Positions 19,135-58,585 of a stretch of 64,000 bases of DNA are shown piece after piece. How positions within the stretch are numbered: position 1 is the stretch's first letter; the number at the start of each line of letters is the position of its first letter. Location of the stretch: positions 1 to 64,000 of IMG/VR virus record IMGVR_UViG_3300032007_000023. One strand, written 5' to 3'. The notes under the pieces were generated by a model, which was given only the letters and a program-made list of their open reading frames with translations, did no database searches and was not told the origin of the DNA. The position numbers and the translations under genes were made by a program. The DNA comes from a virus. Taxonomy: Duplodnaviria; Caudoviricetes.

Positions 19135-19206
19135 GAGAGTTGAAAGACGTATTTCTTTCTTTTCTCATAGTAATAATATATATATGAAGAATCAATATAA
19201 TCCTTC
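19135..19206 (-). repeat. 72-bp exact direct repeat containing a promoter-like motif, copy 2
   Basis: identical to 18541-18612. Confidence 0.95.
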
Positions 19207-34156: not shown

Positions 34157-35608
34157 ATGAAACTTGAAAAAACTACAACGGGTCTCATTATACATAATCC
34201 AGATGATATAACCAAGAGAAAGATACTTCAATATTTTTCTCTTGTTAATCCAGTAAGAGAATTTTTTATCTATTCTGGTAATGATACATCCAAACGACCT
34301 ATATTCGGAAGAGAACATGATGTCGTTTACATATCATCTGGATTTCTTAATCTGAATGATCAATATATTCAAAGACTGCCTCGTCCATCAGTTATACAAC
34401 CAATAACTCCTAAGAGAATAACTCTCACTATGAACAGACAACCTCGTTCAAAGTTACAGGAAGACTGTATAAATATGATGATCGATCCATCTCGTAAAAC
34501 GAATAAAATCACTATTGAACTAAAACCCGGCGTAGGCAAAACGTTCATTGCAACATATGCGATCTCAAAATTGCAATTGAAACCATTAATTGTTGCACCA
34601 ACAACTCTTTTGAAGAATCAGTGGTGTGATGAATTCAGAGATGTTGGTATTCCAAGATCTAATATAGCTACCGACATATACGATGCTCCAAATAAGGATG
34701 TATGTGTTGTTACTATATCTTCTATTGAGAATGCTTTACGTGATGACTGGGAAGGATTGATGGATGTTGTTCGTAGAGCAGCATTTGGTATCAAGGTAGT
34801 TGACGAAGCACATCTTCATCTAAAGGGAAATCTTAAGTTTGATGCAATATGTAATATACCAAACAACTGGTATCTTTCAGCAACTCTTGGTCGTTCTGAT
34901 TATCAAGAAGACAATATTCTCAATAGGGCATTGTCCGATGCATCAAGATTCATAGGCAATCCTAAATATGAAGAATATCAAAAGCAATATGTAAATGTCT
35001 TCTTCCAGGATATATACTATTATCCATCGACTAAGTTATGCATGGAACATTTCCGTTATGGTAGTAAGGGTCTCATTAAAGCTACCTACTACCGAATGTT
35101 AATGGAATACAAACAAGGTATACCATTCTTAAACAATCTCATTTATATGATGAAAGTTGCAAAGAAGACTACGACATATGATGGAAAGATACTTCTTCTT
35201 GTACCATTGATATCCATAATAGAAAGAGTTATGGAAATGATGAAACGAGATCCTTTCTTCTCACAATATTCTTTTGCTGGTGTTGATGGTAGTATGCCAT
35301 TGGCTGTACGTAAACAAGCAATGGAATCAGATTTCATATTATCAACATCATTGTCAATGGGTACTGGTGTAGATGTTAAGAATCTTGCAGCTGTTATAAA
35401 CTTTGATCAATATTCATCTCCTATAATAGGTGAACAGATATTCGGACGTTTACGTGATAGAGGTAAAGAGACCTGGTATTTTGATATAACCGATCACGTA
35501 CGTCAAGCAAGAATGTTTGAATCATGGGGACGTAAAAGACATTCACTTATTCCATATTATCCGGGAGCTCATGATAATATCAAACAGCTTCCAAATATAA
35601 AGTGCTAA
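34157..35608 (+). CDS. SF2 DExH helicase (UvsW-like)
   Basis: KPGVGKT, VVDEAH, LSAT, GTGVD, QIFGRLR. Confidence 0.9.
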   Translation: MKLEKTTTGLIIHNPDDITKRKILQYFSLVNPVREFFIYSGNDTSKRPIFGREHDVVYISSGFLNLNDQYIQRLPRPSVIQPITPKRITLTMNRQPRSKLQEDCINMMIDPSRKTNKITIELKPGVGKTFIATYAISKLQLKPLIVAPTTLLKNQWCDEFRDVGIPRSNIATDIYDAPNKDVCVVTISSIENALRDDWEGLMDVVRRAAFGIKVVDEAHLHLKGNLKFDAICNIPNNWYLSATLGRSDYQEDNILNRALSDASRFIGNPKYEEYQKQYVNVFFQDIYYYPSTKLCMEHFRYGSKGLIKATYYRMLMEYKQGIPFLNNLIYMMKVAKKTTTYDGKILLLVPLISIIERVMEMMKRDPFFSQYSFAGVDGSMPLAVRKQAMESDFILSTSLSMGTGVDVKNLAAVINFDQYSSPIIGEQIFGRLRDRGKETWYFDITDHVRQARMFESWGRKRHSLIPYYPGAHDNIKQLPNIKC

Positions 35609-35645
35609 TTCTTTCTTTCTATTTTAAATTCCTCCTTATAACTGC

Positions 35646-35667
35646 GAGTGGGCCAAACGGCCCACTC
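35646..35667. terminator. hairpin, terminator-like
   Basis: GAGTGGGCC-AAAC-GGCCCACTC. Confidence 0.65.
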
Positions 35668-35783
35668 AATGTTATATCTATTATTTTGATGCTTCATATA
35701 AATATTATTAATATGAATAAAGAATAGAAACGAAATCTTTATCAACGTTTCACATCACATCTTTATTCGGAAAGGAACAAATT

Positions 35784-54318: not shown

Positions 54319-55827
54319 TCATTCATTCCTTTTAGTCAGTGCATAAAGACCATTCAAGCATTCAATCTCGATAACATAAACAGAGTCACATTCAGCCTTA
54401 ATATTGTATATCTTTGAATACATGAGTTCTTCGGCACGTTTATTTGCTTCATCACTCCACAGACCGATACTCTTAACAGTATCACCATCATAGTCTGCTC
54501 CGAGTGCTTTAAGACGAGAGTTACTCATGTTTATAGTTTCAATAAATGAAGTAGCTACTCTGTTATGAGGTCTTTCGATATCTATGACTGGATAATATTC
54601 CATGGTCTCACCACGGAATTGAATTGCTGTTGTTTCCAGTGTAGAAAGGATATGTACTTTGGTGAAGAAGTTACCAAGGTAATCACCTATAGGATATCGA
54701 ACAGTATAAACCATTCTACCAGCATCCTCAATTGCCACCTTGCAGCATAGATAAATTACATCGGTTAATGTAACAGGTCTTGTTACGGTTTGATTCTTCT
54801 TGATATCAAGATACTCCATTTGCATTGGTATTGTATTCTCGGCATCAAGATACATAATACGGAAACGAGATCCAGGGTTTTCCATATAGATATTACAAAG
54901 ATCCTCGATCATCTTGTTATCGTAGATATTATTCAATACACCTGGTTTTACTTCTTCCTTATTAGGATGAATATCCTGAATATTTGAATAAGAGAAGAAC
55001 TGTTTCATTTGGAATAAAACCAAAGGTCTAAATAATGTTGCACATGTATGAAGAGGATAACCTGTTCTAAAGATACCAACCGCAGGATGTTCGTTATTAT
55101 AACGAGGAGCCGAGATAACATTTCTCGCAGTGAAGGTTGTTGTTTTAGCAAGAAGATTCTTTTGGAAGAATCCGTTCTTTGATCCAACATAGTCATGAAT
55201 ATAAGTATAGATATTCATCACAGCATCTTGGAACTTTGCGTATATTTGATATACGTTTGATGTTGTGTGAGCAGTAACACTCTTAAGACCGATGATATGG
55301 GTATAAAGAGAATTCAACTCATTTTTTGTTCTACGACCATTACGCATACCGATTGGTCTGAAGGCAGGTGGTAATACAAGAACCTTATCATTGAATATAA
55401 GTCTCTTTGGTGATTTTGTGAGGATGTCGATATTATCATTTGATCGAGTAGATAAAGTTTTTCTTATATCGATCTGATCCCAGATATTATACAAATCCTT
55501 GAGACCACAATATTGTCCCTCTTTATCTGCTACAAGAACACCATCCTTGAGATTACACTTTGTTTCACCATAAGCCATCTTACGGATGATACCACCAGAT
55601 CTGGCGATTATTGTTTTTGCTACTGATGGATTGAATACATGTACAGGAAGTCTTATGTAGCCACATCTATACTTTTGCTCTTCTGCTGTTTGTCCAAATA
55701 TCTCTTCTGAGAATAAACCTTCTGGATTAAACATGTTCTGAGTTCTGTATATATGCTGGGATTTAACTTCCATCAATTGATTGACCTGGATATATCTATC
55801 GATATCAAACAACTCTTGAATTTTCAT
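54319..55827 (-). CDS. rpoC: phage multisubunit RNA polymerase, beta' N-terminal (catalytic) subunit
   Basis: GLFSEEIFG, GYIRLP, VLPPAFRP, ARNVI, RYP, catalytic ADYDGD. Confidence 0.9.
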   Translation of the reverse strand: MKIQELFDIDRYIQVNQLMEVKSQHIYRTQNMFNPEGLFSEEIFGQTAEEQKYRCGYIRLPVHVFNPSVAKTIIARSGGIIRKMAYGETKCNLKDGVLVADKEGQYCGLKDLYNIWDQIDIRKTLSTRSNDNIDILTKSPKRLIFNDKVLVLPPAFRPIGMRNGRRTKNELNSLYTHIIGLKSVTAHTTSNVYQIYAKFQDAVMNIYTYIHDYVGSKNGFFQKNLLAKTTTFTARNVISAPRYNNEHPAVGIFRTGYPLHTCATLFRPLVLFQMKQFFSYSNIQDIHPNKEEVKPGVLNNIYDNKMIEDLCNIYMENPGSRFRIMYLDAENTIPMQMEYLDIKKNQTVTRPVTLTDVIYLCCKVAIEDAGRMVYTVRYPIGDYLGNFFTKVHILSTLETTAIQFRGETMEYYPVIDIERPHNRVATSFIETINMSNSRLKALGADYDGDTVKSIGLWSDEANKRAEELMYSKIYNIKAECDSVYVIEIECLNGLYALTKRNE

Positions 55828-55896
55828 TATATCATTCCTTTCTGAATAATAAAGATTACCTGGTCGTTTGTAAATGCGAACAAATCAAAAATAATA

Positions 55897-56043
55897 AAAG
55901 AAGTGTGGGGGTATTAACCCCCACAAATAAATACAAACAGTTGGGTCGACGCACTAAAATCGACCCATTCGGAGGATACATTCCATGTCAGTAGAATGCA
56001 TAAAAAATATCACCGGCGAGTGATAAGGTTCATAGATGAACTT
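55897..56043 (-). ncRNA. candidate structured small RNA or leader RNA
   Basis: four hairpins (three with G-U pairs only on the minus strand), then a GC terminator with U-tract; AACA-N6-TA at 56043-56054. Confidence 0.5.
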
Positions 56044-56132
56044 ACGAATTTGTTTTCAAAAGACATATATTATTTTCGTGCTACGGAAGATAACTATCAA
56101 AATAGCAAATAAAACGAAGGAGGAAACTTTTC

Positions 56133-57854
56133 ATGCCAAAGATTAAAGATGATAAATATAATATCATCAAGAATGATGTTGAGAAGATCCAGGCCCGCCC
56201 AACAATGTACATTGCCAATCTTGGAGACTTAGGTGTATTCCATCTTTGTAAAGAATTAGTTGATAATTGCAAAGATGAATGTAGTAATGTTGAATCACCA
56301 GGTGACAAGATTGAAATCACGATGACTGATAAACAGATAACAGTTCGTGATAACGGTAGAGGTATTCCAACAAATATAATCCGAGAGGTATATGAAACAA
56401 TTCAGGCCGGTACAAAAATGACAAGAGCTCATGGTGAAAGTACTGGTGAAAATGGTGTAGGTGGATCAACCTGTGTTCTTGCATTATCATCATATCTCGA
56501 AGTGGTGACAATACGTCCAACCGAAAAATGTAAGATGACTCTTATCTATAAGAACGGCGTTCTATTCGATGAGAAGAAGGAAACTTACACAGGAAATGAA
56601 CATGGTCTCATTGTAACATTCAAGCCTTCAAGAAAGTTACTTGGTGTTGATACAATCCCCACTGAACTCATGAGAACATGGCTTGCTGATGCAGATTATA
56701 CATTACCTAGATCAACTAACATGGTTTATACAATCAATGGTGAGACAACAACAGTTCGTCATAAAGAACTCTTCCAGTTCTTTGAACAGTTCATTCCATT
56801 GGATGCAAGATTATGTAATGATCTCGTGTTCGAATGTTCTGGTCAGCTGAAAGAAGAGTTTGATGAAGAAGTATTCGATAGACATTTCGAAGTATCTGTT
56901 GCAATCACATATTCTGATCCGGATAAATATAAAGGCGATGATGTCCGTCATTCTTGGATGAATATGATTCATACTCCTCAGAATGGTGCTCATGTTGATG
57001 GAATCATCAGAGGTTTCAGTAAAGCGATAACAGAACGAGTTATTCGCAAACAGAAGAAACTTGAGGGTGTTGATATCAAGAGAGATATTCTTGCACACAT
57101 GAATATCGTTGTAAAAGCAGGAACAAACTGTGCACATATGTTTACATCACAAAGCAAACATTCTGTTGACAACAGGGTACTTGGTAAAGCAATTGAAGAA
57201 GCTGCTTATAACGTATTATCAAAGTCCAATGATTCGGTACTGAATGAAATGGCTGAAGTTGTTATCGGTAACCATCGAGCTCGTATCGAAGGTGAAAAGA
57301 TGAGAAACGTTGCATCATCTACAAAGGCTTTGAAGACATGGCAGAAACCTGATTCATATTATCCTTGTGCAACAATCAAAACACCTGAACCAAAAGAGTT
57401 GTTCCTTGTTGAAGGTACCTCTGCTGGTGGTGGTCTTAAAGGTGCGAGAAATGCAAAGTACCAGGCTATCTTGACATTCAGAGGTAAGTCACTTAATGTA
57501 TGGGATCTGTCACTTGATAGAGCTTTACAATCAACACCATGGTTGAATCTCGTAAAGGTTCTTGGATGTGGTATTGGACCAACATTCGATATCAAGAAAC
57601 TCAATTTTGATAAAATCATTATAGCAACTGATGCTGATATTGATGGATATCATATTCGTGTTGGTATATGTGCATTCTTTGTTAAGTTCTTACCCGATAT
57701 TATTAAGGCTGGTAAATTGTATATTGCAGAACCTCCGCTTTATAAACTTGCAAAGGATAAAGACATTTATTATGTTGCATCACAGACAGAATATCTCCAG
57801 ACATGTGTTAATTCTATCGGTGGTATGACACTTGAATTTCCTACAGCAAAATGA
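56133..57854 (+). CDS. gyrB: type IIA topoisomerase B subunit, N-terminal part (GHKL ATPase + Toprim)
   Basis: RPTMYI, ELVDN, DNGRGIP, GENGVG, LVEGTSA, RGK, TDADIDGYHI, PPLY. Confidence 0.92.
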   Translation: MPKIKDDKYNIIKNDVEKIQARPTMYIANLGDLGVFHLCKELVDNCKDECSNVESPGDKIEITMTDKQITVRDNGRGIPTNIIREVYETIQAGTKMTRAHGESTGENGVGGSTCVLALSSYLEVVTIRPTEKCKMTLIYKNGVLFDEKKETYTGNEHGLIVTFKPSRKLLGVDTIPTELMRTWLADADYTLPRSTNMVYTINGETTTVRHKELFQFFEQFIPLDARLCNDLVFECSGQLKEEFDEEVFDRHFEVSVAITYSDPDKYKGDDVRHSWMNMIHTPQNGAHVDGIIRGFSKAITERVIRKQKKLEGVDIKRDILAHMNIVVKAGTNCAHMFTSQSKHSVDNRVLGKAIEEAAYNVLSKSNDSVLNEMAEVVIGNHRARIEGEKMRNVASSTKALKTWQKPDSYYPCATIKTPEPKELFLVEGTSAGGGLKGARNAKYQAILTFRGKSLNVWDLSLDRALQSTPWLNLVKVLGCGIGPTFDIKKLNFDKIIIATDADIDGYHIRVGICAFFVKFLPDIIKAGKLYIAEPPLYKLAKDKDIYYVASQTEYLQTCVNSIGGMTLEFPTAK

Positions 57855-57858
57855 TATA

Positions 57859-57878
57859 TGGGGAGCATATGCTCCCCA
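57859..57878. terminator. perfect palindrome between the two gyrB halves
   Basis: TGGGGAGCATATGCTCCCCA. Confidence 0.65.
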
Positions 57879-57943
57879 ACATATTTATATCGTTTAAATT
57901 TGATACTACTCATTACTATTAATATTGAACGGAGGAATATGAC

Positions 57944-58585
57944 ATGGGTAAAAAAGAAGATGCTAAGGACTTCGTGACAAAAGCATTTGACTATCGTAAC
58001 ATCTTAACCGAGGTAAGTATAAACCGTTCTACCAACGTTTATCTCCTCGAGTACATTGCTTATGGCTTTGCAAAGTACGGCGATACTGTGGAAAGCTTTG
58101 AAGACAATGCTGATGATTGGGTAAGAATGCTTTGTAAAACTTATCCGGAGTTAACCTATAGCAGAAAGTCACATCAGATCAAAGCTGTTATTGATCTCAT
58201 TGATCAACTCGTAGTTGTTGATAATGATTTGATAGAACAGCTTAGATACATTATCGATATTCAGAAGGAATATGGCTTGCTTGTCAAATATGTTGATAAG
58301 AACAAACAGCCTGTACAGACAACTATTCTGAGATACTTCGAATATATTGAAAGATTATATCCTTCTATAAAGGCTCGTTATAAAGGTCTTGGTTCTTCAG
58401 CGGCATCTGTATCAAGAGAAGTTCTTATGGACCCAAAGACAAGAAGACTTCTCCGTGTTACAATGGATGATGCAGAAATAATGAAGACAATGGGTATGCT
58501 TGTTGGTGATGGTAAGGAAAACAAGAATGCTCGTAAAGAAATGCTCATGGGATTCAAGTTTGACATGAGCATGATTGATAACTAA
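57944..58585 (+). CDS. gyrB: type IIA topoisomerase B subunit, C-terminal part
   Basis: RYKGLG, LMDPKTRRLLRV, ARKE; own GGAGG SD. Confidence 0.85.
   Translation: MGKKEDAKDFVTKAFDYRNILTEVSINRSTNVYLLEYIAYGFAKYGDTVESFEDNADDWVRMLCKTYPELTYSRKSHQIKAVIDLIDQLVVVDNDLIEQLRYIIDIQKEYGLLVKYVDKNKQPVQTTILRYFEYIERLYPSIKARYKGLGSSAASVSREVLMDPKTRRLLRVTMDDAEIMKTMGMLVGDGKENKNARKEMLMGFKFDMSMIDN

Follow-up and report, generated by a model that had tools for sequence, protein, structure and literature searches.

The gap between two divergent genes of an uncultured jumbo phage very probably contains a real and conserved gene for a structured small RNA, about 150 nucleotides long, in which an anti-Shine-Dalgarno sequence, CCUCC, is left open between two hairpins. 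At the level of sequence comparison, the homologues of this element show that its fold is under selection, and that it is the minus strand on which the selection acts. That the RNA is transcribed, when this happens, that it pairs with ribosome-binding sites and which messages would be affected is what we infer from these data.

The small RNAs of virulent and giant phages have barely been explored. The few that have been mapped come from Pseudomonas jumbo phages, and their function is not known. The present element represents a new RNA family, for which the comparative support is unusually clean. Its genomic address is fixed, beside a neighbour's early promoter (usually that of topoisomerase II), its motif suggests a mechanism, and it is a well-defined candidate for Rfam. 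If the anti-Shine-Dalgarno reading of the motif is true, phages that do not depend on the host for transcription also control translation by RNA, globally and in a class-selective way. If, furthermore, this control switches translation from early to late messages, it would do with RNA what T4 does with proteins in its RegA/RegB shut-off.

Genomic Setting

The DNA analysed here, called the window, consists of positions 1-64,000 of an IMG/VR record of 165,419 bases, for which a completeness of 61% has been estimated (CheckV). The window encodes split RNA-polymerase (RNAP) beta/beta'-like proteins and a type II topoisomerase, and the nearest cultured relatives of the phage are the AR9/PBS1-like jumbo phages of Bacillus, Staphylococcus and Listeria, with a protein identity of only ~25-30%. 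There was no DNA match among GenBank phages (blastn, 50,697 records), and in the cultured relatives BpSp and LPJP1 neither the topoisomerase-RNAP synteny nor a homologous RNA was seen. The stretch is found in bovine, sheep and goat gut metagenome contigs from 17 studies, and from the occurrence in ruminant-gut metagenomes of so many studies follows that the RNA family belongs to a common group of uncultured phages. Contigs from one run labelled metatranscriptomic (X20), which is probably DNA, cover only the topoisomerase gene and leave the element uncovered, and among the data sets listed for the stretch none is of RNA. No tRNA or tmRNA was found in the window (ARAGORN).

The element sits in a gap of 305 nt (55828-56132), and its parts and surroundings are collected in Table 1. 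The large subunit of topoisomerase II, which begins on one side of this gap, is split in the window (56133-58585) into ORFs of 573 and 213 amino acids, and relatives have a fused ORF of 773-781 amino acids (L084:5702-8032, L080:8573-10906, L093:3461-5788, L116 and L129). Between the two ORFs lie 89 nt, in which a GC-rich hairpin is found together with a new ribosome-binding site. The arrangement recalls the split between topoisomerase genes 39 and 60 of T4, and the spacer may come from the splitting of the gene alone or be a remnant of an insertion.

Table 1. Positions in the window of the RNA element, its parts and the flanking features
Feature	Position	Strand	Description
RNAP beta'-N-like gene	54319-55827	-	One flank of the 305-nt gap
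RNAP beta'-N promoter-like AACG-N6-TA	55868..55857	-	Downstream of the terminator; outside the RNA
Minus-strand RNA element	56043 to about 55895, ~150 nt	-	Four hairpins and terminator
Intrinsic terminator	55925..55893 (hairpin 55925..55904)	-	9-bp GC-rich stem, 4-nt loop, U-rich tail
Second single-stranded linker	55941..55926	-	U-rich in the subgroup of the window, CU-rich in others
P4 hairpin	55967..55942	-	Fold and compensatory changes
CCUCC (anti-Shine-Dalgarno)	55975..55971	-	Unpaired linker between P3 and P4; partition function
P3 hairpin	56001..55976	-	Fold and compensatory changes
P2 hairpin	56025..56008	-	Loop contains GCC; fold and comparison
P1 hairpin GUUCA/UGAAC	56041..56028	-	5'-proximal; begins 3 nt past the predicted start
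Promoter-like AACA-N6-TA	56054..56043	-	Exact match to the AR9 late-promoter consensus; last A (56043) is the predicted start
Topoisomerase II early promoter, AR9-type (ATATATTAT-N6-G)	56065..56080	+	Consensus match; outside the RNA
Topoisomerase II large-subunit gene	56133-57854	+	Other flank of the 305-nt gap

Structure of the Element

When the sequence is read and folded, the AACA-N6-TA motif, the hairpins, the unpaired CCUCC and the terminator with its U-tract all appear where the original prediction had placed them, and the four G-U pairs that it had counted are found among the 40 pairs of the minimum free energy (MFE) structure. The MFE of the minus strand is -53.4 kcal/mol, compared with -31.1 +/- 3.4 kcal/mol for dinucleotide shuffles (z = -6.65), and 0 of 200 shuffles were as stable. 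Structure is likewise seen on the plus strand (z = -4.57), as is expected for hairpins. The partition function assigns to CCUCC a probability of ~0.9 of being unpaired, and the open linker past P3 is made up of CCUCC and four further bases.

Six of the nine base pairs in the terminator stem are G-C. An independent scan found terminator-like sites on the minus strand only, two in number where 0.5 +/- 0.7 were expected. The unit ends in the manner of a bacterial-type small RNA gene: its GC-rich hairpin is followed by a U tract, and this holds for the minus strand alone.

The absence of any sizeable ORF, also part of the original prediction, was borne out: the overlapping ORFs are short and unconserved (41 amino acids on the minus strand; 38, 36 and 12 on the plus strand), and across the homologues compared there was no ORF conserved in frame or length on either strand. 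The shortest of them, a plus-strand micro-ORF of 12 amino acids at 55985, is preceded by GGAGG and a 9-nt spacer before its ATG, and this GGAGG-N9-ATG is kept in the 8-member subgroup to which the window belongs (L003 and L004 were read by eye). That the micro-ORF is the functional product is nevertheless extremely improbable. The length of the peptide varies between 7 and 43 amino acids and only the first five residues, which overlie the loop and one arm of P3, are alike. Outside the subgroup its frame relative to P1 differs, and a U-G pair that is invariant in P3 would on the plus strand be an A-C mismatch. The early promoter, moreover, lies downstream of the ORF start, so that there is no plus-strand promoter upstream of it.

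Selection on the Fold and Assignment of the Strand

The selection on the fold was quantified with alignment A5, in which eight sequences are fitted to a covariance model. In A5, 91.8% of the cells are paired, and the fraction falls to 33-46% when the pairing partners are slid by 1-3 columns. Double changes occur at 18 pairs, and not one of 500 shuffles attains the observed value for any of the five measures. The check for covariation revealed compensatory changes in P2, P3 and P4: seven of ten pairs in P3 and eight of nine in P4 have them in A5, where one P3 pair, U-G, is invariant, while in P2, compared across 14 members of the family, each of the six aligned pairs occurs as at least two canonical pair types, with a single unpaired cell. 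Since the alignments were fitted to structure and the sequences are related, these figures lean towards structure; the control with slid partners and the many independent double changes make chance an unlikely explanation. A MAFFT alignment of 19 sequences misaligned the variable hairpins, and was replaced by the model-fitted alignments together with folds of the individual sequences.

The strand was called from the numbers of G-U and A-C cells and from the polarity of the terminator instead of from the MFE, which favours the minus strand for 15 of 21 homologues with a mean difference of 1.7 kcal/mol and does not separate the strands. In A5 there are 34 G-U cells and 5 A-C cells, and the corresponding numbers for the whole family are 45 and 7. 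The stem of P1 is nearly invariant, and its sole changes, from U-A to U-G and from A-U to G-U, keep the pairing only on the minus strand. From the excess of G-U over A-C, from the changes in P1 and from the U tract of the terminator, which is present on the minus strand only, follows that the structured strand is the minus strand. The loop of P1 varies in length from 3 to 8 nt across the homologues, which argues against P1 being a dimeric DNA operator.

These data also bear on the case where the element works as DNA. Divergent promoters and terminator hairpins would then insulate early from late transcription, or the hairpins would form an origin-like cluster, and the RNA product would lack function. 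Such a boundary element would account for the fixed position back to back with an early promoter and for the strong structure of both strands. An insulator, however, would need the terminator only, whereas four separate hairpins are kept by compensatory changes, and the tolerance of G-U but not of A-C means that one RNA strand, and not duplex DNA, is selected. We therefore consider a DNA-level role improbable, and retain an RNA gene as the reading of the element.

A Family of Homologues in Ruminant-Gut Phages

The family comprises 21 distinct homologues and three divergent forms, all from ruminant-gut jumbo-phage contigs and with a common architecture. The 21 sequences were collected by exact-pattern scans of viral and metagenome collections and with the covariance model R1, made from six close sequences; two of them, L003 and L004, were missed by the pattern scan. 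The divergent forms (in L131, L138 and L128) came from a scan with a topoisomerase profile, and they have kept hairpins, open CU-rich or CCUCC linkers and the terminator. A search with the RNAP protein gave 11 related loci, 6 of which have a like element upstream. The element is absent where the identity of the topoisomerase is 31-34%, and also in some loci where it is 52-56%. In the 165-kb genome model R1 finds a single copy, the other matches having at most 19 bits, and in a scan of the long gaps of the genome no other unit came up that combines a late motif with CCUCC and a terminator.

The folds of all homologues have P1, a P3 that varies, a P4 that is strong and the terminator, and P2 is usually there as well; the stems often cannot be aligned. 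P2 is missing in L031, L003 and L004, and most members keep the GCC in its loop. Across the wider family the sequence of P4 is unalignable, and yet a strong hairpin is always present. The CCUCC lies between hairpins in 16 of the 21 homologues, in three others UCUCC or CCUCU takes its place, and CU-rich tracts are found in the most distant ones. The second linker is nearly invariant within a subgroup of eight sequences, while the stems of P4 vary there. The terminator is present in all homologues.

In a search of Rfam 15 with a permissive E-value no family reached its gathering threshold or came near it; the best match, Yfr1, had 23.6 bits against a gathering threshold of 38, and involved the terminator hairpin only.

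Two loci without the RNA, L125 and L127 (topoisomerase identity 51-53%), have another small unit ~150-330 nt upstream of the topoisomerase gene. It has the same direction as this gene, and consists of one long hairpin with a conserved GUCGGG in the loop, followed by a terminator.

Promoters and Autonomy of the Unit

The late-promoter consensus of phage AR9 is AACA-N6-TA/G, the last base of which is the transcription start site, and the motif of its early promoter is ATATATTAT-N6-G, where G is the start (PMC5312081). The element shares with the late units of AR9 the exact AACA-N6-TA, with the last A as start, and it has the early motif ATATATTAT-N6-G at the divergent neighbour (PMC5312081). From the late consensus follows that the RNA would begin at 56043, three nt before P1. 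From the position of the early promoter, with G as start, follows that the topoisomerase mRNA would begin beyond the element and run away from it.

The distance from the early promoter to the RNA start motif is fixed at 21 nt in all homologues. The start motif itself takes the form (A/G/T)ACA-N6-TA in the family, where the first A varies among the relatives, and ACAAA-N4-TAAGTTCA is kept in 19 homologues, with TAAGTTCG in L003 and L004. The neighbour behind the early promoter is in most loci the gene of the topoisomerase; L087, L090 and L095 have another, small gene in first place.

To take AACA-N6-TA for a late promoter is only partly sound. It is an analogy to AR9, a cultured Bacillus phage with an RNAP subunit only ~30% identical to that of the window. 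In AR9 the late units are read by a non-virion RNAP, and from template DNA that contains uracil. As a general late promoter AACA-N6-T[AG] was rejected, its enrichment in the intergenic DNA of the window being only ~1.6-fold. The variant AAC[AG]-N5-GTA has 5 intergenic sites in the genome where 1.6 are expected, and three of these lie 41-45 nt before a start codon.

On the other side of the element, the RNAP gene lies 70-100 nt past the terminator and on the same strand, in the window as well as in about half of the homologues. This arrangement would suit a cis-acting leader, or attenuator, that sets the read-through into the RNAP beta'-N gene, a role which the original prediction had offered as an option. 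Against this option speaks that both the terminator and the link to the early promoter are kept where another gene lies downstream. The element is intact in six sets of loci with another gene or sequence past the terminator (L094/L110, L031/L114, L083/L116, L088/L129, L003 and L004). The RNAP gene has a promoter-like site of its own, as had been predicted, and this AACG-N6-TA is kept by relatives, including L002, L005 and L007, whose RNAP gene does not have the RNA gene next to it. No alternative antiterminator pairing was present in the folds. Because the downstream gene differs and the RNAP gene has its own motif past the terminator, a leader role is disfavoured, and we regard it as quite improbable.

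The comparison instead shows the RNA unit to be autonomous. Breakpoints of rearrangement in the relatives fall just past the terminator, and one metagenome contig diverges from the window at 55893. The topoisomerase operon on the plus strand, which includes an RNAP beta-like gene, stands behind the early promoter, and the RNAP beta'-N gene on the minus strand has a late-type motif only. By analogy this is what would be seen for a virion polymerase gene, and the picture is self-consistent. Overlapping the AACG-N6-TA of the RNAP gene there is a sigma-70-like sequence, TTTACA-17-TATTAT (10 of 12 matches; 55874-55846, minus strand), and the host polymerase might also read the RNAP beta'-N gene.

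A repeated cassette, in which an early-promoter motif is followed by a similar leader beginning with TATGAGAAAAGAA, occurs in several places in the genome and in relatives: at 19180 and 18586 (minus strand) in the window, near 94378-94500 and 135946-136030 in the genome, and past the terminator of the RNA in L110 and L094. Some of the copies end with ACAGGAAGGAA..CCCACGAGA before the ribosome-binding site, and two copies in the window have an identical stretch of 52 nt.

Relation to Known Small RNAs

Small RNAs that act through an open C-rich seed are well known in Bacillota. RsaE/RoxS and others use such motifs to pair with G-rich ribosome-binding sites, and long complementarity is not strictly needed. 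The seeds of RsaE/RoxS are CCCC or UCCC, often repeated, and these RNAs are host genes with known regulons. The element has no similarity to RsaE/RoxS in sequence or model, as judged by the Rfam search, and it is without CCCC outside the terminator stem.

Phage RNAs, too, can repress translation by covering the Shine-Dalgarno region, as do sar of P22 and c4 of P1/P7. Both belong to temperate phages and act on one defined message, ant, by long or cis-encoded complementarity. The element, in contrast, has a generic anti-Shine-Dalgarno seed and no evident cognate message. The c4 antisense RNA of P1/P7 is named in PMC12197685.

Of the systems described, the csRNAs of streptococci (cia-dependent small RNAs, CcnA-E) come closest; according to the available passages of their description they have an open anti-Shine-Dalgarno sequence between stem-loops and a terminator hairpin, and are thought to block the initiation of translation (PMC3091779). 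The likeness, within the same passages, extends to size, to the low-GC Gram-positive setting, to the position of the anti-Shine-Dalgarno sequence between stem-loops and to the terminator (PMC3091779), and the element has the feature typical of csRNAs in its CCUCC, unpaired between P3 and P4. As described there, however, most csRNAs are built of two stem-loops and show a conserved nonamer, and also an anti-AUG (CAU), in the open region (PMC3091779), whereas the element is phage-borne and has four hairpins and a terminator. CAU is absent from its open linker, the nearest one straddling the loop of P3 and the first pair of the 3' arm. The same passages describe csRNAs as chromosomal and as transcribed from promoters of the CiaRH regulon, driven by CiaR (PMC3091779); in the 40 nt before the RNA start of the element lie the AACA motif and, in reverse, the early promoter.

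In giant phages, ONT-cappable-seq has mapped small RNAs of the Pseudomonas jumbo phages 201phi2-1 and phiKZ, each from a transcription start site to a nearby terminator, and one of them, which derives from a tail gene's 5'UTR and has no known function, shows conservation across genera, as stated in the passages available (PMC11512511). Compared by these descriptions only, they are likewise short units in giant phages with RNA polymerases of their own, and the passages hold no anti-Shine-Dalgarno motif or covariation analysis for them (PMC11512511). The element is not a csRNA, not RsaE/RoxS and not a member of any Rfam family, and its anti-Shine-Dalgarno layout is one known from small RNAs of low-GC Gram-positive bacteria that cover ribosome-binding sites by base pairing.

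A Possible Mode of Action

The mechanism proposed is as follows. An independent non-coding RNA gene of ~150 nt on the minus strand, from 56043 to about 55895, would be transcribed from what is probably an AR9-like late promoter, probably by the non-virion RNA polymerase of the phage itself, and transcription would end at the terminator of the gene itself. In the RNA turnover of Bacillota, a 5'-proximal hairpin shields an RNA from decay that depends on the 5' end, and the 5' hairpin of the element likely stabilises the RNA. The three further hairpins would hold two linkers open, with CCUCC in the first of them, and CCUCC would pair in trans with GGAGG Shine-Dalgarno sequences and in this way block ribosome binding. 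The mRNAs mainly affected would be those that have GGAGG in full, chiefly those of genes behind early promoters. That the RNA acts by masking Shine-Dalgarno sequences we hold to be an even bet.

To see which messages would be affected, consider the genes that are first in their transcription unit and have a Shine-Dalgarno-like sequence. GGAGG occurs in nine of ten such genes behind an early-promoter motif, and in 14 of the remaining 43 (Fisher p = 0.0013). When all genes are counted, it occurs in 10 of 12 behind early promoters compared with 35 of 123 others. Genes that are not behind early promoters mostly have sites of GAAAGGA type, and 29 of the 43 that are first in their unit are without GGAGG. 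The leader at 56081-56135 is an example of the early GGAGG class, and that at 55828-55857 of the GAAAGGA type. From this usage of GGAGG by the early-promoter genes we infer that a CCUCC RNA made late would bind early messages best. One may carry the argument further, and let the late RNA selectively mask early GGAGG messages while the weaker GAAAGGA-type late sites escape, which would give a switch from early to late translation; we judge this extension to be unlikely.

A specific target did not emerge. Among 135 translation start regions there was no outlier in duplex scans with the CCUCC linker, the second linker or the whole RNA, and the starts of the topoisomerase and RNAP genes ranked 26th and 70th. 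A seed of 5 nt is weak and unspecific. Co-variation of the linker with the ribosome-binding site of the adjacent gene, evaluated for cognate versus non-cognate combinations, gave p = 0.06, which is not significant. The core of the original prediction, a discrete gene on the minus strand for a structured RNA that is non-coding and exposes CCUCC, is strongly supported by conservation, compensatory changes, G-U asymmetry and modular context. The start of the second topoisomerase gene was among the best 4-25% for four of seven seeds (those of the window, L110, L111 and L113) in a post hoc comparison where some start codons were mis-picked; as a general target this gene was rejected, for phages with a fused topoisomerase keep the RNA.

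The lack of a specific mRNA target would be natural if the structured RNA instead bound or titrated a protein of phage or host by its invariant parts, i.e., the P1 stem, the GCC loop of P2 and the U-rich or CU-rich linkers, with CCUCC as a protein contact or a by-product. The stem of P1 and the loop of P2 keep their sequences while the other stems drift freely, and the scaffold of several hairpins is more elaborate than most small RNAs that consist of a seed and a terminator. On the other hand, the overlap of P1 with the start site can account for its invariance, the three homologues that lack P2 do without it, and the sole motif that is open almost everywhere is the exact anti-Shine-Dalgarno pentamer. 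Protein binding is in our view a possible reading, though somewhat doubtful.

Elsewhere in the window, at 35609-35690 on the plus strand, a CU-rich tract with CCUCC follows the 3' end of the gene at 34157-35608, just before a strong terminator hairpin. This tract is a second exposed anti-Shine-Dalgarno motif, and it could be the sign of an RNA derived from a 3'UTR.
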